Origin: Candidatus Levyibacteriota bacterium
GTDB taxonomy: Bacteria > Patescibacteriota > Microgenomatia > Levybacterales > UBA12049
Assembly: GCA_016432345.1 (NCBI GenBank)
Contig: CP066685.1
Location: forward strand, 48,236-112,235
DNA: 64,000 nucleotides
Reading direction: 5' to 3'
The notes beneath the pieces are model-generated. The model saw only the letters and a program-made list of their open reading frames with translations. It was not told where the DNA came from and searched no databases. This document shows, in pieces, positions 8,828 through 60,506 of this stretch. Position numbers and translations under genes: made by a program. How positions within the stretch are numbered: position 1 is the first letter of the stretch; every line of letters starts with the position of its first letter.

Positions 8828-8832
8828 AACTT

Positions 8833-11297: not shown

Positions 11298-11365
11298 AAT
11301 ACCTATTGATTTTTTAATAAGGATTTGAGATAATTAATGTATAGGATAATAAATTTGAGAATTAT

Positions 11366-12085: not shown

Positions 12086-12091
12086 TATTAT

Positions 12092-12614: not shown

Positions 12615-12709
12615 CCGCCAAGGAGAGGTCGCATAGCGGACTAGTGCAGCAGTTTTGAAAACTGCCGTGACAGCAATGTTACCGTGGGTTCGAATCCCAC
12701 CCTCTCCGC
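12615..12709 (+). repeat. Direct repeat, right (att-like)
   Basis: Identical to 7024-7118. Diverges after ...CTCTCCGC: TA here versus CA on the left. Confidence 0.9.
12622..12708 (+). tRNA. tRNA-Ser(UGA), copy 2, no encoded CCA
   Basis: Sequence identical to 7031-7117. Followed by CTA rather than CCA. Confidence 0.85.
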
Positions 12710-12719
12710 TACGTAAAAC

Positions 12720-16095: not shown

Positions 16096-16097
16096 TG

Positions 16098-16505: not shown

Positions 16506-16541
16506 AAGTAAAAGTATTATATCCCAAAACTGTGGCAAAAG

Positions 16542-16973: not shown

Positions 16974-16976
16974 ACA

Positions 16977-18716: not shown

Positions 18717-18721
18717 GTGTG

Positions 18722-18961
18722 TTACAGTATAACAAGAGCGTAAATAAAAAGCGAAATTGCCGCTATAAGATTAAAGCCTGTAATAAATGCAAGAAATGTT
18801 GAAGAGTGTGTTTCTTGTATCACTTTATTCATTACTCTTGTCTGGTGAAATACAACAAAGGTAAAAACCGCATATAAAAATAGAATAATAAGAAAAAAAG
18901 ATTTTAAAAGAAACTGCGGTAAAAGAATCGTATTTAGATCAGGCATGACTTCCTTTCCCAA
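18722..18961 (-). CDS. Small membrane protein
   Basis: 79 aa with two hydrophobic segments. Confidence 0.4.
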   Translation of the reverse strand: MGKEVMPDLNTILLPQFLLKSFFLIILFLYAVFTFVVFHQTRVMNKVIQETHSSTFLAFITGFNLIAAISLFIYALVIL

Positions 18962-19577
18962 TCAGGTCTTGAATTATGTTAACTACTTTTGTTGGGTTAG
19001 GAACTGCAAGAAAATCAAAATGAAGTTTTTCGCCGGCGGTTTGCACAAAAACATCGCCATAGTTAAATAACGATCGAATAAACCCTGTTTGCGTATAGTT
19101 TACGTCTTCGATAAGGCTAAGTTTGGTTACGGCGACATCGTGATACAAAAGGTCTGAAAAATCAATATCAACCACCCTTTTTTGAGTAACAAACGATATA
19201 TTAAAATACCAAGTGATAAATTCAACTAATGCAAATGTTAAAACAACAAGGTAATAAAAGATCAGAAAGATTTGCGTAAAGGCGCTAGGGAGAGAGAAAA
19301 AAAGAAATGCAGAAAGTTCAGAGGAAAGAAGCGGCAGTAGAGGAGGGATAATAAAAAGGAGAAATACCAGCGTAATCCAGGGAACATTGGTTATAAAGTG
19401 GCGGCGCAAAAGAAGCAAAATTATTTCGTTTGCTTCTTGGTTTTGAAACGATACTTCTCTTGGATGATCGCAAAATGATGCGAAATGATGAACGTGAGCA
19501 GACTTTTTAAGTACAGTATCTGTTTGCGTTTTGGATGCTGTAGAAGTATTTTTTTCTGTAGTAAAAATATCTGGCAT
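18939..19577 (-). CDS. Membrane protein, bacterial PH (YdbT-like) topology
   Basis: Two TM segments followed by a soluble beta-rich tail. LLRRHFITNVPWI resembles bPH-domain proteins. Confidence 0.45.
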   Translation of the reverse strand: MPDIFTTEKNTSTASKTQTDTVLKKSAHVHHFASFCDHPREVSFQNQEANEIILLLLRRHFITNVPWITLVFLLFIIPPLLPLLSSELSAFLFFSLPSAFTQIFLIFYYLVVLTFALVEFITWYFNISFVTQKRVVDIDFSDLLYHDVAVTKLSLIEDVNYTQTGFIRSLFNYGDVFVQTAGEKLHFDFLAVPNPTKVVNIIQDLIGKGSHA

Positions 19578-19582
19578 AATAT

Positions 19583-19650
19583 CAGCGTTTAGCGTATAGA
19601 TAATAGCGTATAGTTTAACTAAACGCTAGACGCTAACAAACTAGACGCTG
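19583..19650. repeat. Palindromic heptad-repeat element, copy D (best preserved)
   Basis: CAGCGTT TAGCGTA TAGATAA TAGCGTA TAGTTTAACTAAACG CTAGACG CTAACAA ACTAGACGCTG. Exactly fills the gap between two co-directional genes. Confidence 0.8.
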
Positions 19651-21399
19651 TCATCGTCTTTCTACATTATACAACGGGCCGACAATTTGAATATTTGCAG
19701 GTGCGCGTAAATTAAACCAGTCTTTAAATTCTGATCCGTTAAAACTTGTCGAACCAGCATCTCCAGAAAGATTGATTGTACTTATTTTACCACTGCCAAA
19801 ATCAGGACTTACCGAAACATCAGAAACATTATTATAAGGAGTAATATTTCTTGACAAAAGTTCTTGTTTTACTCTATTTGCATCCCAAACTTCTCCTCCG
19901 TAAGGATGGGGTTTGTCTGTTTGGTATAAATGGTCTTTAGCCGAAGAATCTACCCGTGCCAAGAGAATAATGTTAACAATATCAGCCACTTCATCAGGTT
20001 TTAACCAGGCAGTTTTGTTGTATTGGTTTCTTGATCCCCAGTCGCAGTAAAACCAGGGAGAATTGGCATGCGAAGGACCATCATAAGCATTATTTCTAAG
20101 ATCGTCAAAACTGTTTATGGAATCAGATGTTGTGTCTTTAGCGTTTTTAGTAAAAGAAGTTCCATTCCAGCCAATGTCGCCTGATGATTTTATATAACCT
20201 CCGTGAGTTGAGGAATACCATGCTTTGATAGGATTTCCTCCTTCAATCATCACCCAACCCTTAGTTATCTCAACTGCTTCGTTCCATTTCCCTCCTTTTT
20301 CGTTTGCTAAAAATACTTGGCAACGGTCAGTCGGGCAAATTGTTCCACTTCCATTATTGGTATAGGCTAATGCGTACGAACGGGCAGCGATAGCTTGCGC
20401 TTTTTGCGCTTCAAATCCTCCTTCGTTGCCCCAAGATTCTGGCATCTCTCCTAAATGTTTTAAGTAATCTTCAATCTTAAATGAACCAAAGCCATCGACG
20501 TTGATGGAAATATCTTGGCTGTAATCTTTTTTCAATTCATAATTTGTGTAATATGTTCGTAAAATGTCCTCGGCGTTTTGCCCTGCCCTTGATCTTCCAA
20601 ATGCGCCGTATTGCGAAAGACCGACTCGGTTGGGAACGCCGTAGGTAAAAAAAGCCAGACGGGGAGAAAATCCAGGATCTTTTTCCCTGTCATCAATGCA
20701 GGCAGGGACGCCTGCGCCAGCAGAGCGGGGGATGCCAAGACTTGCTAATCTTTGAGAGATAATATCTTGTTGTTTTGCCGAAAGTTGGGCGATTTGACTG
20801 GATAGTTTTTGTTGATAGGCTTTGGCACCAGACACAACCTCGTCTAATTTTTTACTTTGTTCGTCCAGAGTTGTTTTAAGTTGCGCCAGTCGGGTTTGTT
20901 CGATCTCAAGCGTTTTCTTTTTTTCCTCAAGATCAGAAATTGTAATGGCAATGTTGGTGATAATGGCTTTATCTTGATCTGCGGCGGCTTTTTGGTAGGC
21001 TAAAATCTGGGTGATTTCGGATGCCGATTGGAAAGAAAAAAAAGTAGCAAGCGGCGAATCGTAGTGGCTACGTATGTAATAATCACGAATTGTCCGGTTT
21101 AAAATTTCTTCCTGTTTGGTTAAATCTTTATAACCTTTATCGATATTTTTTCGTTTTTCTGCGACATCTGATTCGATTTCCAAAACTCTGTTTTTGATAT
21201 CATTGATTCTTTTTTGCAGACTGTTGAGTTCGGATTCAAGCGGGCGTGTTGCTTTAATTGACATATTTAATGCAGATGTTAAATCATTAATTTGCTTGTT
21301 GATGTCATCAAGCTCATCAGATAAAATTTTGGGGGCAAAAAGTGTGATAAAAGAAAAGAGAAAGACGAACAAAAACAATAAAAAAATCAACCGCTTCAT
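19651..21399 (-). CDS. SpoIID/LytB-domain protein with N-terminal coiled coil
   Basis: Signal/TM segment, long coiled coil, then KAQAIAARSYALAYT...CPTDRCQVF...WYSSTHGGY, which are SpoIID family motifs. Confidence 0.75.
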   Translation of the reverse strand: MKRLIFLLFLFVFLFSFITLFAPKILSDELDDINKQINDLTSALNMSIKATRPLESELNSLQKRINDIKNRVLEIESDVAEKRKNIDKGYKDLTKQEEILNRTIRDYYIRSHYDSPLATFFSFQSASEITQILAYQKAAADQDKAIITNIAITISDLEEKKKTLEIEQTRLAQLKTTLDEQSKKLDEVVSGAKAYQQKLSSQIAQLSAKQQDIISQRLASLGIPRSAGAGVPACIDDREKDPGFSPRLAFFTYGVPNRVGLSQYGAFGRSRAGQNAEDILRTYYTNYELKKDYSQDISINVDGFGSFKIEDYLKHLGEMPESWGNEGGFEAQKAQAIAARSYALAYTNNGSGTICPTDRCQVFLANEKGGKWNEAVEITKGWVMIEGGNPIKAWYSSTHGGYIKSSGDIGWNGTSFTKNAKDTTSDSINSFDDLRNNAYDGPSHANSPWFYCDWGSRNQYNKTAWLKPDEVADIVNIILLARVDSSAKDHLYQTDKPHPYGGEVWDANRVKQELLSRNITPYNNVSDVSVSPDFGSGKISTINLSGDAGSTSFNGSEFKDWFNLRAPANIQIVGPLYNVERR

Positions 21400-22024: not shown

Positions 22025-23035
22025 ATGAAAACATTTGATGTTATTACCATAGGTAATGCGGTTGTTGACCTTTTTTTGGTGATTCACGATGCAAATGCTT
22101 CGATGCGGGTTGATAAGGAATTAAATGAATTATGTGTCAAGGCAGGAGAAAAGATTGAGGTAGACAGATGTGATGTAATGCTTGGAGGCAATGCCGCAAA
22201 TGCTGCGGTTGGGTTGGCAAGAAATGGTTTTATTGTTGGTCTTGCGGCAGAGATTGGCGATGATGAATTTGCCCAAAAAATTGAGCATATCTTGCAACAA
22301 GAAACGGTTGATACGACACTTCTTAAAAAAACAGAAAATGCTGCATCATCCATGACTGTTGGCATTAATTTTCAAAATGAACGAACATTATTTGTAGAGC
22401 ATGTAAAAAGGGAACATCATTTTAATTTTGATAATTTTGATACAAAATGGGTGTATTTAACAAGCTTGGGCAATGAATGGAAGGTTCCGTATGAGCGTGT
22501 TGTTAGGTATGTTAAAAAAACAGGAGCAAGACTGGCATTTAATCCAGGAACTCTGCAGGTACAGGCGAGATATGAAGAAATAAAAAACGCCATGCAGACA
22601 GCAGATATTTTGTTTCTTAATAAAGAAGAAGGTGCTAAAATTTTCAATTTTCAATTTTCAATTTTCAATGAAAACGGAAAAGAAGCAATAAAAAACCTTC
22701 TTAAAAAACTTCAGCAGGCGGGGCCGAAAGTAGTGGTGATTACCGATGGGGAAAATGGTTCTTATGCCATTGATGAGGAGGGGAAGATATGGTTTCTAGA
22801 TGTGTTTCCAGCCACGGTTGTTGAAAAAACCGGAGCAGGAGATGCTTTTGCCTCGGGTTTTATGTCGGCTATTTTAGCAGGAGAATCAGTACAGCAAGCA
22901 ATGTGCTGGGGTGCGGCTAATTCGGCAGCGGTTATCGAGCGCATTGGAGCGCAGCAAGGACTTCTTTCCAGAGAGAAAATAGAAGAAAAGCTTAAGAAAG
23001 CAGATTATTTAGCAAGATATTGCCAGACTGGATAG
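22025..23035 (+). CDS. PfkB-family carbohydrate kinase
   Basis: ITIGNAVVDLF at the N-terminus and the TGAGDAFASGF anion-hole motif. ATG at 22025 is preferred over the track start at 21986. Confidence 0.8.
   Translation: MKTFDVITIGNAVVDLFLVIHDANASMRVDKELNELCVKAGEKIEVDRCDVMLGGNAANAAVGLARNGFIVGLAAEIGDDEFAQKIEHILQQETVDTTLLKKTENAASSMTVGINFQNERTLFVEHVKREHHFNFDNFDTKWVYLTSLGNEWKVPYERVVRYVKKTGARLAFNPGTLQVQARYEEIKNAMQTADILFLNKEEGAKIFNFQFSIFNENGKEAIKNLLKKLQQAGPKVVVITDGENGSYAIDEEGKIWFLDVFPATVVEKTGAGDAFASGFMSAILAGESVQQAMCWGAANSAAVIERIGAQQGLLSREKIEEKLKKADYLARYCQTG
22639..22669 (+). repeat. Tandem heptanucleotide repeat (TTTTCAA)x4 inside the pfkB-family CDS
   Basis: Period-7 tract of 31 bp read directly from the sequence. 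Encodes KIFNFQFSIFNEN. Confidence 0.9.
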
Positions 23036-31945: not shown

Positions 31946-32977
31946 ATGATCAGGGTGGTAATAAATGGGTATGGACGGATTGGGCGGGTGGCGCATCGGG
32001 TGATTTTGGAGAAGCACTCATCCGAAATTGAAGTAGTGGCTATAAATGCCGGGTCGTCTACTGATATTAAAGGGTGGATGTATTTACTCAAGTACGATTC
32101 CGTATACGGATCACTCAAAAATTCAGAATTCAGAATTCAGAATTCAGAATTAAAAGATAGTATTGGCACGTTTGTGATTAATGGTAAGGAAATTCCTGTT
32201 TTCTCACAGAAAGATCCAAGTCTTTTACCCTGGAAAGATTTACAAGTTGATGTGGTTTTGGAATGCACAGGGAAACTAACAACAGAAGAAAAACTTAAAA
32301 GCCATATTACTGCTGGAGCAAAAGCAGTGGTGTTATCGGCTCCAGTCAAAGAAGGCGACATTAGTACCTATGTTTTGTCTGTTAATGCCAATGATTATAA
32401 AAACGAAAATTTAATTAGCAATGCTTCTTGTACTACAAACTGCATCGCTTCTGTTGCAAAAGTAATTTTAGATAATTTTGGGATCGAAAAAGCCATGATG
32501 ACCACCATTCACGGGTACACATCTGACCAGCGTTTGCACGATGGAGGACACAAGGATTACCGTCGGGCAAGAGCAGCAGCCCTAAACATTATTCCAACCT
32601 CAACAGGCGCCACCAAAGCTGCAGCCAAAACCATACCAGAGCTTAAAGATAAATTCACCGGCCTGGCCATTCGCGTGCCTGTTGCGGTTGGTTCGTTGTC
32701 TGATTTTACTTTTTTAGTTTCCAAAAATACTACCAAAGAAGAAATTAATGAGGTTCTTAAAAAAGCAGCTAAAGATGCCAAATATAAAGGTATATTAGAT
32801 GTAACAGAAGATCCAATTGTGTCAAGCGATATTATTGGTAGTAGCTACTCATCAATTGTAGATTTATCGCTAACTCAAGTAGTTGGAGGAAATATGATTA
32901 AAGTAATTGCTTGGTATGACAATGAATGGGGATACGCAAATAGGTTGGTTGAAGAAGCAATCATGGTTGGAAAATGA
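31946..32977 (+). CDS. gap: Glyceraldehyde-3-phosphate dehydrogenase
   Basis: VINGYGRIGR, the active site ASCTTNCIA and WYDNEWGY. ATG at 31946 is preferred. Confidence 0.9.
   Translation: MIRVVINGYGRIGRVAHRVILEKHSSEIEVVAINAGSSTDIKGWMYLLKYDSVYGSLKNSEFRIQNSELKDSIGTFVINGKEIPVFSQKDPSLLPWKDLQVDVVLECTGKLTTEEKLKSHITAGAKAVVLSAPVKEGDISTYVLSVNANDYKNENLISNASCTTNCIASVAKVILDNFGIEKAMMTTIHGYTSDQRLHDGGHKDYRRARAAALNIIPTSTGATKAAAKTIPELKDKFTGLAIRVPVAVGSLSDFTFLVSKNTTKEEINEVLKKAAKDAKYKGILDVTEDPIVSSDIIGSSYSSIVDLSLTQVVGGNMIKVIAWYDNEWGYANRLVEEAIMVGK
32120..32151 (+). repeat. Tandem heptanucleotide repeat (AATTCAG)x4.5 inside gap
   Basis: Period-7 tract of 32 bp. Encodes NSEFRIQNSEL in a loop that is about 8 aa longer than in the E. 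coli and B. subtilis GapA sequences I recall. Confidence 0.9.
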
Positions 32978-34271: not shown

Positions 34272-34300
34272 TTGACACTGCAGATGTAGTGTCATATTCT
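34272..34300 (+). promoter_or_regulatory. Putative nrdR-nrdJ promoter
   Basis: TTGACA, 17 nt, TATTCT. Overlaps NrdR box 1. Confidence 0.4.
34274..34293 (+). promoter_or_regulatory. NrdR box 1 (atypical, 2 bp wider)
   Basis: GACACTGCAGATGTAGTGTC has palindromic arms GACACT/AGTGTC. Its centre is 32 bp from the centre of box 2. Confidence 0.5.
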
Positions 34301-34307
34301 TGATTTT

Positions 34308-34323
34308 GCACTATATATAGCGT
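34308..34323 (+). promoter_or_regulatory. NrdR box 2
   Basis: GCACTATATATAGCGT compared with the published consensus acaCwAtATaTwGtgt. Confidence 0.7.
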
Positions 34324-34409
34324 TTAGAAACTAGCGTTCAGCGTCTAGTTATACTATAATAATAACTAAAATAATAACTAAGCGCTAGACTCTAATAACT
34401 AAACGCTAA
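34317..34409. repeat. Heptad-repeat element, copy E (degenerate, in the nrdR leader)
   Basis: ATAGCGTTTAGAAACTAGCGTTCAGCGTCTAG ... AAGCGCTAGACTCTAATAACTAAACGCTAA. Confidence 0.5.
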
Positions 34410-37800: not shown

Positions 37801-38277
37801 CATAACGAAAAACACGAACCATTCGAAGTCTTTATTACTATCGGTAAATCCGGGTCTGATATCGCAGCTATGGCCGAGGCCTTGGGCAGAACTATTTCCC
37901 TTTCTTTACGCTTAAACGGTGGTTTGCCGGCGCGGGAAAGAATTCGCCAGGTGATTGCGCAACTAGCAGGTATTGGAGGCGCAGGGAGTGTGGGTTTTGG
38001 GAAAGATAGGGTGCGATCTTTGCCTGATGCAGTGGCCAAAGTGCTAGCTAAACATTATGGATTTCGGGTAAATGGAAAAGTAGAAGATAAAGAAGAGGGC
38101 ACTGTAAGTAATGGGCATGTTGCCGAGGCAACAGGTATGAGTATGGTTCAGCAATTGGCTATTGATGGGTCGTCTTCGACAAGCTTGTTTGATCTATGCC
38201 CAGACTGCGGAGCAGGAACTTTTGCCTACGAAGAAGGTTGTAAAAAATGCTATTCATGCGGATACTCGGCGTGTTGA
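34864..38277 (+). CDS. nrdJ: Class II (adenosylcobalamin-dependent) ribonucleotide reductase NrdJ, intein-containing
   Basis: The extein is about 778 aa. The active-site NPCGE motif is split as ...INCVNP | intein | CGEEGLPAWGVCNLASLNL. A C-terminal Cys-rich tail reads CPDCGAG...CKKCYSCGYSAC. Confidence 0.9.
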   Translation: MKLEGIREKVFLDRYSLKDKEGKPVEKTPEEMWRRVAKGVAKVEKPKLRKVWEDKFYKAMEYFKFVPGGRVLAGAGTGYAVTFYNCFVIPSPKDSRGGILDTLKQMVEIMAHGGGVGINLSSLRPRGFRVKKVNGFSSGPCNWAELFSVATKDIIQQGGSRRGALMLMLWDWHPDIEEFITVKQDLTRINGANLSVCASDEFMEAVKKDADWDLIFPDTTDPEYDEKWDGIMANWKKMGKKVKVYKTVKARHLWDLICKAAWTSAEPGLVFMERYNKWYNNWYWNTINCVNPCVTGDTLVSTTNGLQSMRKLYDGGMPFRVVVDGKHYLSTHVKLTGVKPVYKLKTREGYELRLTEDHKVFTTNGKKEAGKLVAGEKILLSAGGAFGTVGTLDEGRVLGWLVGDGSMKEDVATLFFYRKEKQELAPQFALMVEKMVEGEQVVARSYPVAPQYVEKEDKAVVESVRLWRIANRYGITHANKYVVPEKIFEGAEEFQRGFLQGLFSSDGSVQGTVQKGVSVRLTSISRELLVGAQKLLLNFGIVSKLYENRRVAQSRFLPDGKGGSKEYMCKAYHELVVAKDSLIAYAALVGFLQEEKQEKLRTLLSLYKEGPYKQPFVATFSSLKAGGVEEVFDITVSDIHRFSANGLVVSNCGEEGLPAWGVCNLASLNLSAFVKGYTLDKPGTFDYESLAEHARIGVRFQDDVVDADQYVYPQIKEMQLNGERRIGLGTLGLADALIKMHLRYGSAEAQKVVDKIYQTIRDAAYDESINIAKEKGAFPKINVKKHLLGYFIKQLPEGVKKKMQKYGVRNSMLLQAAPTGTTSLLSGASSGVEPVYEFEYTHNGRLGKQTVFHSLYGEWKKAHPDAKRPDYFVGANDLTPEDHVKIQATVQKYVDASISKTVNAPNAHTVEDVKKLYMMAYDAGCKGITYMRDGSRLGVLQRVEEPSVSQPAIMKRPIMVQGVTYQTNTPVGEAFVTINHNEKHEPFEVFITIGKSGSDIAAMAEALGRTISLSLRLNGGLPARERIRQVIAQLAGIGGAGSVGFGKDRVRSLPDAVAKVLAKHYGFRVNGKVEDKEEGTVSNGHVAEATGMSMVQQLAIDGSSSTSLFDLCPDCGAGTFAYEEGCKKCYSCGYSAC
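35740..36816 (+). mobile_element. Intein (359 aa) with LAGLIDADG homing-endonuclease domain
   Basis: Starts CVTGDTLV, has block B LRLTEDHKVF, and ends GLVVSN followed by +1 Cys. LAGLIDADG motifs are LGWLVGDGSM and FLQGLFSSDGSV. Confidence 0.85.
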
Positions 38278-38278
38278 A

Positions 38279-38680
38279 ATGGAAGAACAAAACAATAGAA
38301 GATTTGCCAATATTTTTATTGGTATTTTGATCCTTTTAATCATTGGATATTTTGGTTATGGATATATTGCTTCTCAAGATGCTGCAAAAAAAAGCGCAGA
38401 ATTAACAACACAGAATAAACCAACTCCAACTATCGTCCTTGTTGATTATGTGAAGTATCAAGGAAAAACAGGAAAGAATGCTATGCAGCTTTTGCAAGAA
38501 AAATCTTCAGTTGAGACTGCAACATCAGGACTTATTATTGCTATTAATGGAAGAAGAGCAGATAATGCAAAACGTGAGTATTGGGCATTTTATGTGAACG
38601 GCAAACTGGCAACTGTTGGCTCGTCTGATTATCAAACAAAGGATGAAGATATGATTGAGTGGAAAATAGATAAGTATTAA
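38279..38680 (+). CDS. DUF4430-like protein with membrane anchor (possible cobalamin binder)
   Basis: TM anchor, then YWAFYVNGKLATVGSSDYQTKDEDMIEWK, which resembles the DUF4430 domain related to the transcobalamin beta-domain. Start trimmed to the ATG at 38279. Confidence 0.5.
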   Translation: MEEQNNRRFANIFIGILILLIIGYFGYGYIASQDAAKKSAELTTQNKPTPTIVLVDYVKYQGKTGKNAMQLLQEKSSVETATSGLIIAINGRRADNAKREYWAFYVNGKLATVGSSDYQTKDEDMIEWKIDKY

Positions 38681-38685
38681 GTATT

Positions 38686-39219
38686 ATGTATCAAGTATTA
38701 AGGGAGATAACGAATCCATTATTAATTATTGGTATTGCTGTTGCTTTGCGGCTTGTGCCGCATCCTGCAAATTTTGCGCCGATTGGGGCTATGGCGTTGT
38801 TTGGAGGAGCATATCTTAACAAGAAATATGCATTAGCAGTACCACTACTAGCAATGTTGGTATCGGATTTTTTTATTGGTTTTCATAATACCATGGGTTT
38901 TGTGTATGCAAGCTTTTTACTTATTGGCATTCTTGGTTTGTGGTTAAGAAGGCACAAAAATGTTAGAAATGTGATAGGTGCTGCGTTTGTTTCCTCAATA
39001 CTTTTTTTCCTTATTACCAACTTTGGAGTATGGTTGGTTAGTAATATCTATCCAAAAACTGCTGCAGGACTAATAGAATGTTATGTTGTAGCAATCCCGT
39101 TTTTTAGAAATACATTACTTGGAGATTTGTTTTATGTAGGTTTATTTTTTTTTGGTTACGAAGCAGTGTTGAGGTTTATAAAAAGCTATGGTCAAAATCT
39201 ACACAAAAACAGGGGATAA
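38686..39219 (+). CDS. Small multi-pass membrane protein (candidate vitamin/B12 transporter component)
   Basis: About 5-6 TM segments. The HPANFAPIGAMALFGGAYL motif resembles S-component-like membrane proteins. The function is inferred from context only. Confidence 0.4.
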   Translation: MYQVLREITNPLLIIGIAVALRLVPHPANFAPIGAMALFGGAYLNKKYALAVPLLAMLVSDFFIGFHNTMGFVYASFLLIGILGLWLRRHKNVRNVIGAAFVSSILFFLITNFGVWLVSNIYPKTAAGLIECYVVAIPFFRNTLLGDLFYVGLFFFGYEAVLRFIKSYGQNLHKNRG

Positions 39220-39727
39220 AGGGGAGACATCGCTATATGGCGGAAAAAGAGTATCAAAAGCAGATCTAAGAGTTGAAGCCTATGGGACAGTGGATGAACT
39301 CAACAGCGCAATAGGTATTACGATTGCGCAATTTTCAAATAAATCTCAAATAATAAATCTCAAAAAAGAACTTACACAAATTCAAAATGATTTGTTTGAA
39401 ATTGGCTCAATCTTAGCGAGTCCATCAACTATACGCTATACGCTAGACGCTAGACGCTTGGAGAAGATGATTGATGAGATGACAAAAGAACTTCCAGAGC
39501 TTCGAAACTTTATTTTGCCAGGAGGAGGTATTGTAGGTTCGTATTTGCATCTTACTCGTTCGATTGCAAGGCGGGCAGAACGAAGAATTGTTGTATTGTC
39601 TCAAAAAGAGCAGGTTGACAAAAGTATTTTAATGTATTTTAATCGTCTTTCTGATTTGCTGTTTACCATGGCTAGGTTTGTAAATTATAAAGAAAATAAA
39701 AAAGAAGTTATTTGGACAAATAAATAG
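39188..39727 (+). CDS. pduO: PduO-type ATP:cob(I)alamin adenosyltransferase
   Basis: KIYTKTGDKGETSLYGGKRVSK, DELNSAIG, NFILPGG and ARRAERR. Confidence 0.9.
   Translation: MVKIYTKTGDKGETSLYGGKRVSKADLRVEAYGTVDELNSAIGITIAQFSNKSQIINLKKELTQIQNDLFEIGSILASPSTIRYTLDARRLEKMIDEMTKELPELRNFILPGGGIVGSYLHLTRSIARRAERRIVVLSQKEQVDKSILMYFNRLSDLLFTMARFVNYKENKKEVIWTNK
39429..39458 (+). repeat. Heptad array (CTATACG CTATACG CTAGACG CTAGACG) in frame inside pduO
   Basis: This is the right-arm type of the palindromic family. 22 nt (39424-39445) are identical to 52944-52965. Encodes STIRYTLDARR. Confidence 0.9.
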
Positions 39728-39818
39728 ACGGGTGAAACCTTGTGAAATTCAAGGGTAGTGCCGCTACTGTGACAACCAGAGCCCCGATATGAGTCTTCCG
39801 AGCAGAAGCGTTTTTTTT
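39728..39818 (+). ncRNA. Candidate cobalamin riboswitch (short variant)
   Basis: GGUGAAACCUUGUGAAAUUCAAGGGUAGUGCCGCUACUGUGA aligns without gaps to the core consensus AGGGAAnnnnGGUGnAAnUCCnnnnCnGnnCCCGCnACUGUnA. The CCUUG-UGAAAUU-CAAGG hairpin resembles P4/L4, and CGGG...CCCG forms a closing helix. A U8 run precedes the ATG at 39819. Confidence 0.45.
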
Positions 39819-40916
39819 ATGGAAAGAGAAGTAAGATTAGGCTCGCAAGCTTTTGATGTTGAAAAAGAAAGAGTATACGGAAATAAACAAATTCGTGATG
39901 ATTTAGTGTCGTATTTAGACGAATATCGTTTGCAAGTATCAAAACATGGTTTTGAATTTCAATATTCTGGTTATAAGGTTAAGGATATATATAGTGGCGA
40001 GCCAATGAGCGTTAAGACAAAACGAACTTTAGCAGAGCGACGAGCAAAAGGATTGCCAATACACAGAGAATTAGCAGAAGATGCAGGTATTGAAAGTCTT
40101 GATGAGCAGTTGGCATATGCCAAAGAAGGAGACCGTATTTTTTGGATGAGCCCGCCAGGACCAAAAGAAGATGGATATGGTAATTATGGCTTTGTTTTTG
40201 AAGGTAGAGTTGTGGGTGAGCGTCTTTTTATGACTGCAAATCGAATAGAAAAACCAACTATTGCCCAGTGCAACAAAGCATTTTTTGAATTAACAAGAGA
40301 TAATGTTGGCTATATAAATCCAGAGGGATTTTTAGCCAACCCCAGAGTTGTTAGAAATAGTATGGTTGATGCAGATTTTATCTTGCAAAGAAATTTTTCG
40401 TTTGCAGTAGATCAGAAAGAAGCATTAATAAATAAACAAGTTATTGCAGAAATGGATTCGATGATTGATGAATTTGTTGGGGTAGTAAAAACAGGCACGC
40501 GAGAAGAAAAGATTACTGCTTTTCATGCGCTGGAAAATTACGCGCTCGAACTCAAAAAACGTCTTATGCATAAGGCCGAAGCAAGGGAAAACGATAACAT
40601 TATTTTTATGAGCGAATATCGTGATCATAGATATTTAGCAGATATACTGAATGTCTATGGATATATGCCCCCCATTGTTGCGGGAAGCTGTGGACCAACC
40701 GGAGAGGAAACAAAAAGTAACGATCTGTTTGCCGATAATTTTAAAGATTTAATGAAGGCAATTTTTGGAGACTTGAAGGAGATGTTTGGTATTGATGAAG
40801 AATCTTATTCTTTTGATAAGAGCGGTACGTGTGTGCGGTGCAAAAACGAAGGCATGCTTGGTCCGTGTAATTTGTGTCAAGGGTGTGATAGCTACTTACG
40901 ATTGCAAGCCGCGTAA
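39819..40916 (+). CDS. Hypothetical protein with C-terminal Cys cluster
   Basis: 366 aa from the ATG at 39819 (the track start 39789 lies inside the leader structure). Ends CVRCKNEGMLGPCNLCQGCDSYL. No family recognised. Confidence 0.5.
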   Translation: MEREVRLGSQAFDVEKERVYGNKQIRDDLVSYLDEYRLQVSKHGFEFQYSGYKVKDIYSGEPMSVKTKRTLAERRAKGLPIHRELAEDAGIESLDEQLAYAKEGDRIFWMSPPGPKEDGYGNYGFVFEGRVVGERLFMTANRIEKPTIAQCNKAFFELTRDNVGYINPEGFLANPRVVRNSMVDADFILQRNFSFAVDQKEALINKQVIAEMDSMIDEFVGVVKTGTREEKITAFHALENYALELKKRLMHKAEARENDNIIFMSEYRDHRYLADILNVYGYMPPIVAGSCGPTGEETKSNDLFADNFKDLMKAIFGDLKEMFGIDEESYSFDKSGTCVRCKNEGMLGPCNLCQGCDSYLRLQAA

Positions 40917-40962: not shown

Positions 40963-41427
40963 ATGGATGATACTGTCCAGAATTCAGTTCAAAGTTCAAA
41001 GTTCAAAGTTCAAAGCCAGACGCAGGGAGACGATAGTGCGACGACCCAAGTTCAGTCTCAGGTTGTTCCGCAGCCTGTTGGATCAGTTGCAAAAGAACAT
41101 GGGCCGATTGAGGAATACATTAAATCATCGGGAGCAGAATTAGAGCTTATTATACCAGAGGAACTTAAAAATCATGTTGAGGTGGTTTCGGATCGGGAAA
41201 AACCACAGCTTACTCATCATCATAAAGCAGTTGGAATTCATCCCGCCAAAGAATCGGTGTCTGTAGCTGTACAGCCGCAGCAGGTAATTCAGCTCCCAAT
41301 GACAGAAGAAGAGGCTTTGCAAGCAATAAAAACAACAAGCATAAGCGATTCCAAACATTGGATGGCTGTTTTAATTGAAAAGGTTTATGAACATATAAGA
41401 AATATGCATAGAAGAATAACAAATTAG
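40963..41427 (+). CDS. Hypothetical protein
   Basis: 154-aa ORF ending 1 nt before the next gene. The N-terminus contains a heptamer repeat, so the start codon is uncertain. Confidence 0.4.
   Translation: MDDTVQNSVQSSKFKVQSQTQGDDSATTQVQSQVVPQPVGSVAKEHGPIEEYIKSSGAELELIIPEELKNHVEVVSDREKPQLTHHHKAVGIHPAKESVSVAVQPQQVIQLPMTEEEALQAIKTTSISDSKHWMAVLIEKVYEHIRNMHRRITN
40986..41015 (+). repeat. Tandem heptanucleotide repeat (GTTCAAA)x4
   Basis: Period-7 tract of 30 bp. Preceded by CAGAATTCAG, which matches the unit of the gap repeat. Confidence 0.9.
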
Positions 41428-43828: not shown

Positions 43829-43900
43829 GGGCGGATAGCTCAACGGCAGAGCAGATGTCTTATACACATCTGGTTATAGGTTCGAATCCTATTCCGCCCA
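43829..43900 (+). tRNA. tRNA-Ile(UAU)
   Basis: Acceptor GGGCGGA/TCCGCCC, anticodon arm GATGT-CTTATAC-ACATC, T arm ATAGG-TTCGAAT-CCTAT. CCA is not encoded. Confidence 0.85.
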
Positions 43901-43903
43901 CCC

Positions 43904-49520: not shown

Positions 49521-49800
49521 TACGCGCGGGGTAGTGTAGAGTGCACGTGAGGCTCAAAATGGGCCCTTTTATTAGTAATAATGAGAGAGAACTTAGCTAT
49601 ATCGGTAAAATCCCCCTTCGCATAAAGTTTTGGAGGGACAATACCGAGGGAATCCGCAAACTGGCGGAACACCGTAGAGACTACACGCTAAGCTCCCGAT
49701 ACTATCGGGATGATGATATAGTCCGACACTCCAAGCAATTGGAGAAACAGATCGCATAATCTCACAGGCTGGGCGCAACTCCCAGCCCCGCAACACATTT
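49521..49800 (+). ncRNA. Unclassified structured RNA (stand-alone sRNA or long 5' leader of the MFS gene)
   Basis: Hairpins: CGGTA...TACCG (49603-49646) enclosing TCCCCC/GGAGGGA; TCCGC-AAACTG-GCGGA (49653-49668); CCCGAT-ACT-ATCGGG (49695-49709); CTCCAA-GCAA-TTGGAG with a GNRA loop (49729-49744); GGCTGGG-CGCAACT-CCCAGCC (49767-49787) followed by a T5 run. A possible closing helix is GCGGGG/CCCCGC. The ORFs on both strands look like noise. Confidence 0.4.
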
Positions 49801-51023: not shown

Positions 51024-51821
51024 ATGAACAATCAGCCGATTGGTGTTTTAGACTCTGGAGTTGGAGGATTGTCCATTTGGCAAGAAATTGTTAAACAGAT
51101 GCCTCGCGAATCCACAATCTATATTGCCGATTCCAAAAACTGTCCGTACGGCAGTCGAGCACCACACGAGATTTTCCCGCTCGCCAAGCGAATAGTGCAA
51201 TTTCTCCTTGAAAAAAAAGTAAAAGTAATTGTTGTTGCCTGCAATACTATTTCTGTTTGTGCATTAAAAGAGTTGCGCGGTGAATATAAAACTGTGCCAA
51301 TTGTTGGTATTGTGCCGGTTATAAAAACTGCGGCAATCAAGACAAAAAACAAATACATCGGTATTTTTTCTACAGTAACAACAGCTAAAAGCGGATACGA
51401 AAAGGAACTTATTAAAACATTCACAAGCGGTTGTAAAGTTACAAATATTGGCACAGAAAAGCTTGTTCCATTTATCGAGAGAGGAGATATTGATTCGGAG
51501 GAGGTTAAAAAGGTTATCAAAATTGTGACTAAGCCGTTTGTAAAAAATAACATTGATGTGATTGCGCTTGGGTGTTCGCACTTTCCGTTTTTAGCAAAGC
51601 CAATGCAAGAGATTTTAGGGAAAAACGTATTGATCTTGGATTCGGCAAGAGCGGTGGGGCGACATGTGGGACGAGTACTAACAAAGAATAATATGTTGAC
51701 ATCACGAAATAAAGCACAGCACCAGTTTTTTACCACGGGAAATGCAAATAAGTTTGAGAAGGTCGCAGAGAAATTAATTGGCGATACAATACGAGGAAAT
51801 GTTATATATGTACGACTTTAA
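51024..51821 (+). CDS. murI: Glutamate racemase
   Basis: IGVLDSGVGGLSI, VVACNT and LGCSHFPFL. Confidence 0.9.
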   Translation: MNNQPIGVLDSGVGGLSIWQEIVKQMPRESTIYIADSKNCPYGSRAPHEIFPLAKRIVQFLLEKKVKVIVVACNTISVCALKELRGEYKTVPIVGIVPVIKTAAIKTKNKYIGIFSTVTTAKSGYEKELIKTFTSGCKVTNIGTEKLVPFIERGDIDSEEVKKVIKIVTKPFVKNNIDVIALGCSHFPFLAKPMQEILGKNVLILDSARAVGRHVGRVLTKNNMLTSRNKAQHQFFTTGNANKFEKVAEKLIGDTIRGNVIYVRL

Positions 51822-53157
51822 AGATAAAAAAATTGCGGTTTTGGGAATGGGAATAGAGGGAGAATCAAGCGCAGAATTCCTTCGTAAGCGCGGTGCCAAT
51901 GTTGCAGAATTAGATCAGAAAATAGATAAAGATTATCTTGAGTATCTGGAAAAGTTTGACATGATTGTTAGAAGTCCGGGAATTAAAAGAAATCTTCCTC
52001 AACTTATTGAAGCAGAAAAAAAAGGAGTAATTATTACCTCCCAAACCAAACTTTTTTTTGATATGTGTCCCTGTCCAATTATTGGTGTGACCGGTACTAA
52101 AGGAAAGGGGACAACATCTGCGCTTATTTATGAAATGTTAAAAGAATCTGGTAAGGATGTGTATTTAGGTGGCAATATTGGTAATCCTCCATTTACATTT
52201 TTGGATAAACTTACTATTCAGTCAAAAGTGGTTTTAGAAATGTCTAGTTTTCAACTGCAAGACATGACTGTAAGTCCGCACATTGGTGTTGTTTTAATGA
52301 TTACTCAAGAACATTTAGCTCCTGATAAAAAAGACAGTCCAGACCAGAATTTTCATACCGATATTTATGAATATATTGATGCCAAAAGAAACATTATTCG
52401 TTTTCAGAGCAATAAAGATTTTGCAGTAATCAATAGAGACTATATTGCCAGTAACGAGTCGGATATCACAACCGCGGGAAAAGTATTTCATGTCAGCCGC
52501 GAGCAGGGAGTTAGTCAGGGAGCATATGTAAAAAATAATGTAGTATTCTTGCGGTTTAACGATAAAGAGCAAAAAATTATTGATGCAAAAGACGTCTTGC
52601 TTCGGGGTGGACATAATTTGGAAAACGTGTGTGCAGTGGTGATGGCGGCAACGCTTTCCGGCGTAACGGCTAAAAATATAGTTTCAGTCTTAACCAGTTT
52701 TCGAGGACTGGAACATAGGCTGCAGTTTATTGGCCAAGTGAGTGGAGTTGAGTATTATGACGATTCGTTTTCGACTACTCCCGAAACTGCTATTGCGGCA
52801 ATCCAGGCCTTTACCGAGCCGGAGGTTTTAATTCTGGGAGGCGCACATAAGGGGAGCGATTTTACCGAGTTAGGCAGGGTTATTAGTGAAGCAAAAAATA
52901 TCAAAGCCATTATCGGCATCGGCATTGAGTGGAGCAGGATAAAATCAACTATACGCTATACGCTAAACGCTATGCGTTATATTGAAGGATGTGGGGATAT
53001 GCAGGAGATTGTACGAAAGGCAGCCGAGGTGGCAAAGCCGGGGGATGTGGTGGTATTGAGTCCTGCCTGTAGTAGTTTTGATATGTTTAAAAATTACAAA
53101 GACCGGGGCGAGCAGTTTAAGAGGGAAGTTGGAAAATTAGAACTCTATACTCCATAA
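51808..53157 (+). CDS. murD: UDP-N-acetylmuramoylalanine--D-glutamate ligase
   Basis: IAVLGMGIEG, GVTGTKGKGTTS, GGNIGNP and LSPACSSFDMFKNYKDRG. ATG at 51808 is preferred. Confidence 0.9.
   Translation: MYDFKDKKIAVLGMGIEGESSAEFLRKRGANVAELDQKIDKDYLEYLEKFDMIVRSPGIKRNLPQLIEAEKKGVIITSQTKLFFDMCPCPIIGVTGTKGKGTTSALIYEMLKESGKDVYLGGNIGNPPFTFLDKLTIQSKVVLEMSSFQLQDMTVSPHIGVVLMITQEHLAPDKKDSPDQNFHTDIYEYIDAKRNIIRFQSNKDFAVINRDYIASNESDITTAGKVFHVSREQGVSQGAYVKNNVVFLRFNDKEQKIIDAKDVLLRGGHNLENVCAVVMAATLSGVTAKNIVSVLTSFRGLEHRLQFIGQVSGVEYYDDSFSTTPETAIAAIQAFTEPEVLILGGAHKGSDFTELGRVISEAKNIKAIIGIGIEWSRIKSTIRYTLNAMRYIEGCGDMQEIVRKAAEVAKPGDVVVLSPACSSFDMFKNYKDRGEQFKREVGKLELYTP
52949..52976 (+). repeat. Heptad array (CTATACG CTATACG CTAAACG CTATGCG) in frame inside murD
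   Basis: Same element type and same reading frame as the copy in pduO. Encodes STIRYTLNAMRY. Confidence 0.9.
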
Positions 53158-54583: not shown

Positions 54584-56109
54584 TTTTAATTGTTGATTTT
54601 GGTTCACAAACAACCCATCTTATTGGCAGGCGAATAAAAGAGTTAGGCGCTGCGGTGCAAATTGTTACTCCCGAATCCGTTTTATCAACAATTCAAAAAG
54701 AGAAACCATCGGGTATTATTTTGTCCGGGGGTCCCTCATCAGTTTACGAAAGCGGCAGTCCAACCATAGATAAGAAAATTTTTGATCTTAAAATTCCCGT
54801 TTTGGCAATTTGCTACGGGTTTCAGTTAACAGCACATTTGTTAGGTGGTAAAGTCTTATTTGGCAGAAAAGAATATGGACCAGCCAGGCTGGAAATCTTA
54901 AATCTTAAATCTCAAATCTCAAATAGCTTACCAAAAAAGTTTACGGTCTGGATGAGTCATGGGGATGATATTGTTTTTCTGCCAAGTGGATTTATTGTTT
55001 TTGGTAGTACCGAACATGTGTCGTTTGCTTTAGCAACAGATGAAGAGAGAAAAATTTTTGGCTTGTTGTTTCACCCGGAGGTCGAGCATACAGAGTATGG
55101 CAGGCATATTTTAGCTAATTTTATCCGCATTTGTGGGAGTTCCGTCAAAGAACACAAAATTGATGTAGAACAGATTATTGCCGAAATAAAAGAAAAAGTA
55201 GGGGATAATTATGTGATTGGTGCGGTTTCGGGCGGTGTTGATTCCACAGTTGCTGGAGTATTAGCAGCCAGCGCAATAGGTGACAAATTTATTCCAGTCT
55301 ATGTTGACAATGGATTGATGCGGCAGGGGACAACAGAACATGTGAAAAAAATTTTCACAAAAACAGCTGGAATAAATCCTATAGTTATTGACGCGGTGGG
55401 GGAGACTTTGGAGAATTTACGGGGGATAGCCGACCCGGAAGAAAAAAGAAAAGTAATTGGTAATTTATATATTACAATTTTTGAGCATCAAGCGGAAAAA
55501 TTGGCAAAATCTGGTAAATCTACCAAATTTCTTATGCAAGGTACTATTTATTCGGATGTCATAGAGTCTCAAGGCAGCAAGCACGCGGCTAAGATAAAAA
55601 GCCATCATAATGTTGGCGGTTTACCCGAGCGCATGAAGTTACAACTTTTGGAACCGCTCCGAGGGTTATATAAAGACGAAGTCAGGACTCTTGGAAAAAG
55701 TTTGGGACTCCCCGATGAATTTGTGCATAAACAACCATTTCCCGGCCCAGGTTTTGCCGTACGAATTAGAGGAGAAGTTACCAAAGAGCGACTAGAGAAA
55801 GAGAAGAAGGCAGATGTAATAGTGCTTGAAGAATTAGAAAAAGCGGGGTTGCTTGCTAGTATTTTTATTTCATTTCCCGTGATGACCAATGCTTTTTCTA
55901 CAGCAGTCAAGGGAGACGGGCAGTTTTTTGGCGAAGTTATTGCTCTTCGAGTGGTTGAGTCTCAAGATGTAATGACTGCCACATGGGCCCGACTCCCCTA
56001 CGAAGTCTTGCAAAAAATTTCCTCTCGTATTGTTAATGAAGTTTCGGGAATTTCCCGCGTTGTCTACGACATTTCCACCAAACCCCCAGCCACCATGGAG
56101 TGGGAATAG
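54580..56109 (+). CDS. guaA: GMP synthase (glutamine-hydrolysing)
   Basis: GATase motifs CYGFQ and HPE, the ATP-PPase motif VSGGVDS, and the C-terminal dimerisation domain ending PPATMEWE. Confidence 0.9.
   Translation: MILIVDFGSQTTHLIGRRIKELGAAVQIVTPESVLSTIQKEKPSGIILSGGPSSVYESGSPTIDKKIFDLKIPVLAICYGFQLTAHLLGGKVLFGRKEYGPARLEILNLKSQISNSLPKKFTVWMSHGDDIVFLPSGFIVFGSTEHVSFALATDEERKIFGLLFHPEVEHTEYGRHILANFIRICGSSVKEHKIDVEQIIAEIKEKVGDNYVIGAVSGGVDSTVAGVLAASAIGDKFIPVYVDNGLMRQGTTEHVKKIFTKTAGINPIVIDAVGETLENLRGIADPEEKRKVIGNLYITIFEHQAEKLAKSGKSTKFLMQGTIYSDVIESQGSKHAAKIKSHHNVGGLPERMKLQLLEPLRGLYKDEVRTLGKSLGLPDEFVHKQPFPGPGFAVRIRGEVTKERLEKEKKADVIVLEELEKAGLLASIFISFPVMTNAFSTAVKGDGQFFGEVIALRVVESQDVMTATWARLPYEVLQKISSRIVNEVSGISRVVYDISTKPPATMEWE
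54893..54924 (+). repeat. Tandem heptanucleotide repeat (AAATCTT x2, AAATCTC x2) inside guaA
   Basis: Period-7 tract of 32 bp. Encodes LNLKSQISNS just before the conserved VWMSHGD. Confidence 0.9.
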
Positions 56110-59711: not shown

Positions 59712-60506
59712 TTAAGCTTTCTGTACATAGTTTATCATGTTTTCAAAGATGGTGAGACCAGCTGGTTTTGTTATCTGCTCGCTTGCGGACATTCGGCGCC
59801 AGTTGGGGTGGTTGGTAATGTGGTTAAATTTTTCCGGATGGGGCATTAGACCTAAAATTCTGCCAGTTGGGTCACAAATGCCGGCAATGGCATTAATAGA
59901 TCCATTTGGATTTTCTGGATAATTTTGGGTTGGTTTACTGTTCGCATCGACATAGCGAAAGACAACCAAATTTTCATCCTCGATTTTTTGTATCATATCG
60001 GGTGTTGCTAAGAATTTACCTTCTCCATGATTGACAGAAACATCTGTTATTAATTCCGCATTTTTCAGAAAGACACAAGCACTTTTTTCCTGTTTTATCT
60101 TTACCCACCTGCATTGAAATAGACCAGATTCATTATTGGTTAAGGTCGCATTTATAGTGCCTATGTTTCCAAATGGTAAAAGACCTGTGAGGATAAGTAC
60201 CTGGAAGCCGTTACATATACCTATAACAAGTGTATCTTTACGTTCAACAAATTTTTTAAGTTCATCAGAAAAAAATGATATCAGCTCAACTGCTAAAATT
60301 TTCCCAGATACAATATCATCTCCGTATGCAAAACCGCCAGGGAGGGCGAGAATATTGAAGTCACGAAACTTTTTTTCTTTGTTTCGTAACTGATTAACAT
60401 GGACAATTTCGGCATTGCCGCCGCTTACATTAAATGCAAAGGCTAATTCTTCATCGCAGTTTGTCCCATCTGCTTTTAGCACTAAAACCTTTGGTTTTAT
60501 TTTCAT
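59712..60506 (-). CDS. purQ: FGAM synthase glutaminase subunit PurQ
   Basis: ALPGGFAYGDD, GICNGFQ and the HGEG triad context. Confidence 0.85.
   Translation of the reverse strand: MKIKPKVLVLKADGTNCDEELAFAFNVSGGNAEIVHVNQLRNKEKKFRDFNILALPGGFAYGDDIVSGKILAVELISFFSDELKKFVERKDTLVIGICNGFQVLILTGLLPFGNIGTINATLTNNESGLFQCRWVKIKQEKSACVFLKNAELITDVSVNHGEGKFLATPDMIQKIEDENLVVFRYVDANSKPTQNYPENPNGSINAIAGICDPTGRILGLMPHPEKFNHITNHPNWRRMSASEQITKPAGLTIFENMINYVQKA

Follow-up and report, generated by a model that had tools for sequence, protein, structure and literature searches.

Heptanucleotide repeats in bacteria and the CTAnACG family

Tandem repeats built on a unit of seven nucleotides have been described in several groups of bacteria, and we use them here as the frame of comparison for the CTAnACG family, a dispersed set of heptanucleotide arrays in a stretch of 64,000 nucleotides from a Candidatus Levyibacteriota bacterium (assembly GCA_016432345.1, contig CP066685.1, positions 48,236 to 112,235; hereafter the window, meaning this whole stretch at its full length). 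CTAnACG arrays lie between genes and also inside two genes, those of a PduO-type ATP:cob(I)alamin adenosyltransferase and of MurD (UDP-N-acetylmuramoylalanine--D-glutamate ligase). Among the described systems, TAACTGA (MacGregor 2015, PMC4679880) is a 7-nt direct repeat in 2-6 copies found in marine Beggiatoaceae, Cyanobacteria and Bacteroidetes. Most TAACTGA sets stop within a few nucleotides of a downstream start codon, and the majority of these starts have no Shine-Dalgarno sequence. Read in one orientation, the repeat is closed by stops in each of the three frames and can only end open reading frames (ORFs); read in the other, it occurs within ORFs and encodes a fixed heptapeptide, mostly at protein ends. 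The distribution is patchy and strain-specific with no obvious mechanism of transfer, and S1, Csp or CsrA have been proposed as binders (PMC4679880). More generally, heptamers are an over-represented class of long repeats in many bacteria (Rehm 2015, PMC4692102), such as GGGAATC in Xanthomonas and GGGGAYT in Nostoc. They lie 0-50 bp from ORFs, sometimes overlapping stops and sometimes inverted; in Xanthomonas their position is conserved while their sequence varies between species, and polymerase slippage in a 7-nt register has been proposed (PMC4692102). Inside genes, two further systems are of interest: the Rickettsia palindromic elements (RPE; PMC10969869), which enter genes in frame as complete units of ~150 bp, lengthen the protein by tens of residues and carry a conserved peptide of their own, and the in-ORF tandem repeats of Borgs (PMC9879509), whose unit lengths are always divisible by three and which expand into disordered regions.

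The CTAnACG family resembles TAACTGA in having a 7-nt unit, in its proximity to start codons, and in having one orientation closed to coding and the other found in ORFs with a fixed heptapeptide. It differs in the unit itself, in that between the genes of Levybacteria the copies mostly come as inverted pairs that could fold into a bulged hairpin, and in that many other units coexist in the same genome. Furthermore, the Levybacteria coding copies are internal, sit in loops of conserved enzymes and are shared by orthologues, whereas those of TAACTGA are found at the ends of mostly hypothetical proteins. The family also resembles the published heptamers because its non-coding sense arrays end just upstream of start codons; however, the Xanthomonas and Nostoc heptamers are G-rich, quadruplex-capable, run to tens of copies and were analysed as intergenic, whereas the Levybacteria units are AT-rich or CTAnACG, reach no more than about 4.5 copies and are in many cases coding. 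Like RPE, CTAnACG is a non-coding palindromic family with in-frame copies in unrelated metabolic genes whose fold is kept, but in the present genes one arm of ~33 nt takes the place of a loop at nearly unchanged length, and its peptide simply follows from the 7-nt unit. With the Borg repeats it shares perfect tandem nucleotide repeats in unbroken ORFs, fast-evolving and often common to homologues; the unit here is 7 nt, however, and it takes the whole array, 30 or 33 nt long, to reach a multiple of three. Cyanobacterial heptamers of the STRR type, from Nostoc/Calothrix, were reportedly described by Mazel in 1990. The omega ribbon-helix-helix (RHH) repressor of inc18 plasmids reads contiguous 7-bp operators, direct or inverted, cooperatively upstream of genes; the CTAnACG units are unrelated to these operators, and no promoter is predicted at the elements. 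We identified no omega-type RHH partner protein here, and no search was aimed at one. Set against these systems, what is new is the occurrence of internal, loop-located and length-neutral coding arrays in core enzymes, with a position that is kept and units that are turned over or recombined, together with an intergenic architecture of inverted pairs.

Coding arrays in pduO and murD

An exact 22-mer, ATCAACTATACGCTATACGCTA, is found on the plus strand at 39424-39445, in the adenosyltransferase gene, and at 52944-52965, in murD. This identity, to which a first-pass annotation of the DNA had drawn attention, holds at every base at both positions and is unique in the window: no further match is found at up to 3 mismatches (0 expected, from 100 dinucleotide shuffles). 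In the adenosyltransferase gene the array (39424-39460, plus strand; PduO site 2) consists of TCAA, two CTATACG units, two CTAGACG units and a final CT, and is translated as STIRYTLDARR (residues S80-R90). In murD (52944-52982, plus strand) TCAA is followed by two CTATACG units, CTAAACG, CTATGCG and TTATA, which encode STIRYTLNAMRY (residues 380-391 of 449). Tandem Repeats Finder returns 4.3 copies of CTAGACG for PduO (39429-39458, 95% matches) and 4.7 copies of CTATACG for MurD (52949-52981, 80% matches), in line with the four units per gene counted earlier after the 22-mer, and the translations likewise bear out that both segments are read in an identical codon phase. Both genes are unbroken, as had been claimed. 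The adenosyltransferase ORF (39188-39727, plus strand) matches Pfam PF01923 Cob_adeno_trans over profile positions 1-171 (E 6e-59), solved PduO-type structures at E 1e-43, and a Candidatus Levyibacteriota database protein at 100%; MurD (51808-53157, plus strand) has all three of its domains and is matched by solved MurD structures. Its start is taken from the database protein (ATG at 51808); the mechanical ORF begins at a TTG at 51778.

We favor, with moderate confidence, the interpretation that these segments are coding copies of a dispersed CTAnACG heptanucleotide family, of one kind with the TAACTGA, STRR and GGGAATC heptamers, tolerated as passengers, whose loop alleles are recombined. According to this interpretation, arrays would be born and kept regular by copying in a 7-nt register (replication slippage or template switching), a process already suggested for published heptamers, selection would act as a filter that passes arrays with no in-frame stop, a length divisible by three and a location in a loop, and homologous recombination between related lineages would shuffle the loop alleles. 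The coding copies themselves would be needed by neither PduO nor MurD.

How do two unrelated genes come to share a frame and a peptide? The first-pass annotation saw in this either a frame-constrained insertion mechanism or strong selection after insertion. Computing the translations of a generic tandem heptad, we find that, since 7 = 1 mod 3, the three frames are presented in turn and one cyclic heptapeptide results whichever frame is read; for CTA[T/C]ACG arrays every frame gives a cyclic permutation of LYAIRYT. Any coding copy therefore yields the peptide shared by PduO and MurD, and because the array encodes the same peptide in all frames, no frame-aware insertion machinery is needed. In-ORF CTAnACG copies from other genomes use all three phases (9/6/4), and those from several phyla all translate as ...RYTL.A..., so that the shared frame and peptide carry little information. 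The antisense strand has TAG in all three frames, and thus only sense arrays are found inside genes. On the sense strand, A or G at n gives TAA or TAG in one phase of three; in the coding arrays the unit in the stop-prone phase holds T or C at n, as required. The filters on a coding array are sense orientation, a stop-free n, a total length divisible by three and location in a loop, and no others are needed.

The same arithmetic could make the arrays contingency loci, in which frameshifts through changes in copy number would switch pduO and murD on and off: each 7-nt unit gained or lost shifts the frame, and heptanucleotide tracts are reported to mediate phase variation in Haemophilus. We judge this to be very improbable here, as the orthologues examined are all in frame with short tracts of 4.3-4.7 units, the variation at n interrupts the units and lowers slippage, and the genes concerned have housekeeping rather than surface or restriction functions.

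Now we consider how the segments sit in their proteins. An insertion would add length. Where the array lies, solved homologues exceed PduO by 3-7 residues and fall short of MurD by 2-3, which amounts to no net insertion; alignment with array-less Levybacteria alleles gives replacement at fixed boundaries, with 33 nt in place of 21 nt. In the AlphaFold model of PduO (mean pLDDT, the predicted local distance difference test score, 84.7), residues 80-90 fall within the loop 78-87 and the first turn of helix 88-99, and the loop joins helices 53-77 and 88-99. In that of MurD (pLDDT 87.2), the stretch 380-391 begins where helix 375-380 ends, spans the loop 381-389 and reaches into strand 390-392. 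Mapped on these models, both segments are connector loops that coincide with local confidence minima, the pLDDT of the MurD block falling to 74. Because of the length comparison and this loop placement, we read the PduO and MurD arrays as roughly length-neutral replacements of what are predicted to be surface connector loops. As to the in-frame element that had been suspected, what the genes hold is a single arm of ~33 nt, placed at the modeled surface, with the fold kept and the Pfam domains complete.

These observations bear on a second alternative, that a mobile palindromic element (similar to an RPE or to a miniature inverted-repeat transposable element, MITE) recently invaded both genes by frame-respecting insertion. 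In its favor, the intergenic arms described below have the same unit and the same AA/TCAA boundary, intergenic copies are gained or lost between syntenic genomes, and RPE show that palindromic elements can lie in frame within metabolic genes (PMC10969869). However, the genes hold one ~33-nt arm only: an inverted partner is absent within 80 nt of either array, and the coding arrays do not fold. The junctions of array-bearing and array-less alleles show neither terminal inverted repeats nor target-site duplications, only TCAA / AGA..TTA microhomology, and no net length is gained. In addition, several genomes have the arrays in common, even where MurD identity is as low as 60%, a 7-nt unit is by its nature frame-neutral, and four contiguous units are unlike the 2+1 layout of the intergenic arms. 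We consider recent invasion by such an element quite unlikely.

We also asked whether the peptide, rather than the nucleotide repeat, could be what the two proteins have in common. Orthologue DNA was obtained for MurD from L001, L002, L003 and L208 (85%, 86%, 69% and 60% amino-acid identity, respectively) and for PduO from L204-L207 (69-74% BLASTP identity to the query), where L-numbers label DNA loci and P-numbers proteins of relatives. All of these sequences are metagenome assemblies, and the arrays recur in independent NCBI, ENA and Logan assemblies. Every orthologue that bears the peptide and for which DNA was fetched (L204-L207 for PduO; L001, L003 and L208 for MurD) carries the nucleotide repeat, and orthologues without the repeat have different peptides at the loop. 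A repeat-free orthologue with the same peptide was looked for and none was found; the coding copies belong to the CTAnACG family, and convergent protein sequence is excluded because every peptide-bearing orthologue with fetched DNA carries the repeat. The idea that both enzymes need a STIRYTL-type loop, with nucleotide identity secondary, draws on the recurrence of the peptide among orthologues of both proteins; yet the n positions give varying residues while the synonymous third positions stay on rare codons, the loop of other orthologues has an unrelated peptide or none, and the segments are connector loops of low model confidence. We give it next to no weight.

Two further features of the adenosyltransferase gene deserve mention. 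A second, degenerate heptad array (PduO site 1; 39338-39364, plus strand; AATAAATCTCAAAT x1.9) occupies the loop between helices 27-48 and 53-77. At the other end of the gene, an AdoCbl-II riboswitch (Rfam, 39.8 bits; 39716-39792) overlaps the stop codon and directly precedes ORF 39789-40916, which encodes 375 aa with no Pfam match and a Cys-rich C-terminus; in L206, a B12-riboswitch-like sequence, judged by eye, lies upstream of pduO instead.

Loop turnover and conservation of the motif

When the same loops are compared across orthologues, different heptads are found in them. The MurD loop holds CTATACG in some and CATATAC in others, and PduO site 2 holds CTAnACG, GAAGTTA or AATACAA, with heptad-derived peptides in 28 of 110 parsed homologues and two length classes of 16 and 20 residues. 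PduO site 1 is array-derived in most of 120 homologues, which carry AAATCTC, CAAAGTT, AAGTATT or AAATATC arrays, and two other proteins of the window, GAPDH and a 161-aa ORF, have a heptad different from that of syntenic L206 at the same place. The first-pass annotation read the arrays as a non-coding family that had colonised, or been converted into, two genes. The part of this reading that stands is that the genes hold coding members of the CTAnACG family; they are not insertions, and with the same arrays in several Levybacteria genomes and the same loop holding other heptads or none in close relatives, they are not a private, recent colonisation of this genome.

The turnover is seen between close relatives. 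For the PduO tree we used 139 columns, with both array sites masked. Outside the array sites, P0124 (CTAnACG) is 90.8% identical to the array-less P0149, and P0128 (CTAnACG) is likewise 90.8% identical to P0229, which carries an AATACAA array; P0133 and P0193, at 84.3% with the array sites masked, are also listed with array-discordant nearest relatives. Because relatives that are ~91% identical lack the array or carry another, PduO must work with any array or none. The array-less class looks ancestral, since it has a conserved consensus of its own that is shared with the outgroup L126, whose PduO is array-less. A mosaic in codon-aligned DNA suggests how the alleles move: L204 and L303 are 0.88-0.89 identical through site 1 and fall to 0.48-0.62 over ~75 nt around site 2, where L204 instead matches L205 at 0.89. 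From this mosaic we infer that short recombination tracts exchange loop alleles, which explains the patchy distribution without a site-specific insertion machine. Strict vertical inheritance with purifying selection, by the same token, is undercut by the patchiness among 85-91% identical proteins and by the L204/L303/L205 mosaic.

Within arrays, changes are patterned. All units of L205 have T at n, units 2 and 4 of L208 are both CCATACG, four of four GC linkers are changed in L002, and between CAAAGTT and CAAAACT arrays the same two substitutions are repeated in every unit, a pattern that points to copying between neighbouring units. Slippage as the source of that copying is inferred, since no copy-number variant was seen. 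Some orthologues carry second-order inserts of 8-20 residues within their heptad arrays (RY-PSASLRAS-TLDA; VQSY-GSTSSPSRVKSRDN-SKLK; SGKRSASRIRSWTSQDD). The carriers are L205 (859-905) and the proteins P0134, P0173, P0146, P0185, P0164, P0004, P0005, P0008 and P0016; the L205 insert DNA, GGTTCGACAAGCTCACCATCCCGAGTAAAGTCGAGGGAC, is a small hairpin, and a related 20-mer occurs in L105. In Nostoc, small dispersed repeats insert into heptamer arrays, and the L205-type inserts are reminiscent of these repeats.

Several observations weigh against the arrays being no more than tolerated passengers. At columns with identical residues, the codon is also identical in 4/5 cases inside the PduO array vs 10/79 elsewhere (p = 0.002), and in 8/8 cases inside the MurD array vs 110/285 elsewhere (p = 0.0006); the codons concerned are the rarest of this genome (CTA makes up 7% of Leu, ACG 8% of Thr and CGC 12% of Arg codons). 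All four n positions vary, compared with 8/29 of the fixed positions. At 60% protein identity, the MurD array is 85% nucleotide-identical, the remainder of murD 67%. The same pattern of conservation would be expected if purifying selection acted on a nucleic-acid motif. Presence of the arrays is concordant between the two genes in 6/6 genome pairs, the MurD array being present in 2/2 genomes with the PduO array and both being absent in 4/4; the PduO and MurD arrays do not cluster by genome. The evidence for recombination is one mosaic; for slippage, no variant of ±7 nt in copy number was seen and all orthologues seen are in frame; and the CTAnACG unit itself is present in many phyla.

Since there is no such clustering, ongoing gene conversion between the pduO and murD arrays was rejected as the source of their similarity.

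The conservation pattern could be accounted for by functional nucleic-acid sites: a factor that reads the intergenic CTAnACG elements would also bind within pduO and murD DNA or mRNA, with the motif kept by selection and the encoded loop free to vary. Candidates would be a protein that binds RNA close to start codons, of the sort suggested for TAACTGA, or an omega-like reader of 7-bp DNA units. This account would fit the conservation of synonymous sites and rare codons while changes at n replace residues (I/K, D/N/Y, R/I/M), with synonymous third positions fixed on rare codons, as well as the arrays of both genes staying near one consensus in at least four genomes without clustering by genome. 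The co-occurrence and joint absence of the two arrays would fit it too, as would the orientation-dependent placement of non-coding sense arrays just upstream of starts, and a viral contig with seven arrays between genes (both below). Against it, relatives at ~91% identity are array-less or have an unrelated unit, so that the gene can do without any given array sequence; the coding arrays of one small genome use at least six units, too many for one sequence-specific factor; conservation is lacking among the downstream genes; sigma-70-like promoters are not predicted at the elements, and the n positions lack compensatory pairing. Copying between units together with recombination can, moreover, mimic conservation. 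We regard functional sites as the main alternative, though a less likely one, and continue to favor tolerated, recombining coding copies.

An internal translation start or a promoter for the downstream gene was also considered and rejected: no in-frame ATG is conserved behind the arrays, and in L001-L003 murD and the gene that follows it converge.

Intergenic elements, other heptads and their meaning

Between genes, the window holds five inverted pairs, each made of AGCGTnTAG units, an AT-rich spacer and CTAnACG units, and all five fold as bulged hairpins (z = -2.5 to -4.7). The element at 2500-2563 (-22.8 kcal/mol, z = -2.6) has its left arm 8 nt from the 5' end of a tRNA-Ser gene (2405-2492, minus) and its right arm overlapping the stop of ORF 2541-2969 (minus). 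That at 3591-3668 (z = -3.6 to -3.7) lies between the divergent tRNA-Arg gene (3506-3584, minus) and ORF 3667-6009 (plus), and that at 6103-6166 (z = -2.5 to -2.8) between tRNA-Arg (6173-6247, minus) and tRNA-Ser (6009-6095, minus). The element at 19584-19649 (z = -3.5) fills the spacer of ORFs 19651-21399 and 18939-19577 (both minus), 7 nt before the ATG. The last, at 34319-34408 (z = -4.7), is found between a TTGACA / NrdR-box-like region and the ATG at 34413 of an nrdR-like gene; it is missing from the syntenic spacer of L206, that is, intergenic copies have been gained or lost between syntenic genomes. Three of the five adjoin tRNA genes, and 4/5 stand between co-directional genes. They alone have the REP/BIME-type trait of a short imperfect intergenic palindrome able to form a hairpin.

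The coding segments had been identified with the right arm of these palindromes. The CTAnACG unit is indeed common to the five pairs, but the layout differs: in the usual intergenic arm an AT-rich, degenerate unit separates two good units from a further good one, whereas in the coding arrays TCAA is followed by four units without a break. Because of this difference (2+1 vs four contiguous), the coding arrays are a subtype and not literal copies of the window's arms. Between opposing arms, the n positions form 6/24 Watson-Crick pairs vs 5.8 expected, in a small sample. A sigma-70 promoter scan of positions 1-20000 found none in the palindromes; the tmRNA and the tRNA-Ser gene at 6939 have canonical ones. 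Rfam 15 at gathering score gives no match at the CTAnACG elements, its hits in the window being tRNAs, the tmRNA, a group I intron and the AdoCbl-II riboswitch. The five longest pairs that an inverted-repeat finder reports for the window do not include the CTAnACG elements.

Some observations concern these elements in relatives. A TTGACA followed by a palindromic ACACTATATATAG-like (NrdR-box-like) sequence precedes the nrdR-like gene both in the window (34272-34320) and in L206 (6690-6730), and in the window the left arm of the element at 34319 starts within the last bases of the NrdR-like box (…TATAGCGT). L206 also carries, at 9743-9798, seven perfect CGTATAG units (antisense CTATACG) right after a ribonucleotide reductase stop with no right arm nearby, and the sense array in its pduO lies ~480 nt downstream on the same strand. 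In L002, an inverted intergenic heptad element (7327-7420; unit TTCCATT... / ATGGAAA x5) ends exactly at a TrpG-like start codon; since it uses another unit, the inverted-pair architecture is not specific to CTAnACG.

Beyond the window, a scan for CTAnACGCTAnACGCTA in one genome per species gave at least 120 stretches. Among the matches listed, arrays of 3-8 units or with an inverted partner are in the majority, and many phyla are represented: Levybacteria, other Microgenomates, Saccharibacteria, Parcubacteria, Omnitrophota, Atribacterota, Planctomycetota, Nitrospirota, Gammaproteobacteria and Bacteroidota. Again among those listed, the modal length of the 154 arrays is four units and 16 of them are deep inside long ORFs; a long ORF starts within 15 nt after 30 of the other 138 sense arrays, compared with 6/138 when the orientation is that of the control (p = 2e-5). 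For 12 Levybacteria/Microgenomates genes, 3-10 nt separate the ATG from the end of the last unit. Of the genes behind such arrays, 0/12 have a Shine-Dalgarno sequence vs 36/172 (21%) elsewhere (p = 0.13, not significant), a comparison to be read with the low use of such sequences throughout and the crude gene calls; gene calls in the survey were mechanical. In viral sequences, 94 stretches were found in 2.9 million contigs, which we judged, without a calculation, to be near chance with the exception of one contig. That contig, IMGVR_UViG_3300031651_000021 (L230, L240, L276; 23.9 kb, GC 42%), has seven CTAnACG arrays of 3-7 units, all intergenic, in the order hairpin, AGGAG, ATG, several of them with an AGCGnA inverted partner.

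CTAnACG is one heptad among several. The window has 8 period-7 segments vs 0-1 in shuffles, and none at periods 8 or 10-12. The density of period-7 segments is 12.5-36 per 100 kb in Levybacteria vs 2.9 per 100 kb in other phyla (272 kb), a 4-12x difference, whereas that of the codon-driven period 6 is equal everywhere. A metagenome scan with the PduO alignment returned mostly distant non-Levybacteria loci, and it was used as a control set only. Identical-unit pairs at non-orthologous sites number 5 vs 0.13 expected; a few unit types recur. The arrays inside genes are AATTTTC x4.4, perfect by Tandem Repeats Finder, in a PfkB-family kinase (22639-22669, plus); AATTCAG x4.6, perfect, in GAPDH (32120-32151, plus), with ~8 extra residues relative to solved homologues; AGTTCAA x4.3, perfect, in the N-terminal region of the 161-aa ORF 40963-41427 (40986-41015, plus), where the L206 orthologue has CAAAACT x4; AAATCTY x4.6 in GuaA (54893-54924, plus), length-neutral at 2 residues under the solved homologue; and a weaker AAGTTTY x3.7 in a PurL-like gene (61595-61620 in 60503-63352, minus). 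All five are read through in frame. The AT-rich units all rotate to CAAnnnT, which is stop-free in every frame because the C parts the T-run from the A-run. One array spans a gene junction: TAAGTAT x4.6 (38671-38702, plus) covers the TAA stop of a DUF4430 gene (38162-38680) and the ATG of a DUF6580 gene (38686-39219), and this ATG arises from the array by one altered base. The TAAGTAT unit also codes in PduO site 1 of L207, where the stop-prone T is a C.

A few RNA genes of the window stand apart from the arrays. The group I intron hit (49545-49745, 66.5 bits) has flanks resembling tRNA exons, with an acceptor/D-arm before and a T-arm/acceptor after it; ARAGORN called no tRNA on simple splicing of the locus at many trial boundaries. 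A preprint of 2025 is said to deal with group I introns in Patescibacteria tRNA genes. There is also a tRNA-Ile with anticodon TAT (43829-43902), unusual for bacteria, and four tRNA-Ser genes lie in the first 13 kb, two of which share the TGA anticodon.

Taken as a lineage-wide habit, core-enzyme loops of Levybacteria (PduO, MurD, GAPDH, GuaA, the PfkB kinase and others) hold heptad runs of ~30-33 nt. For the annotation and alignment of candidate phyla radiation (CPR) proteins, this means that array loops are repeat-derived and are not to be taken as conserved motifs, and for reduced genomes it means that a frame-neutral 7-nt unit is a cheap route to the rewriting of loops. The conservation of the motif at synonymous sites within genes provides a testable handle on whether a cellular factor reads the heptamers. 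A more far-reaching idea, which we regard as rather unlikely, is that heptad arrays in Levybacteria, and perhaps in other CPR bacteria, are a nucleic-acid signal laid over coding sequence. A factor would read 7-nt units on DNA or mRNA, recognising arrays that stand beside start codons as well as those that occupy permissive loops in housekeeping genes. Selection would act on the motif and not on the peptide, and loop alleles with different 'addresses' would be swapped by recombination. If this were true, core enzymes would carry in their surface loops a second layer of information, an address space for regulation or for the organisation of the chromosome.

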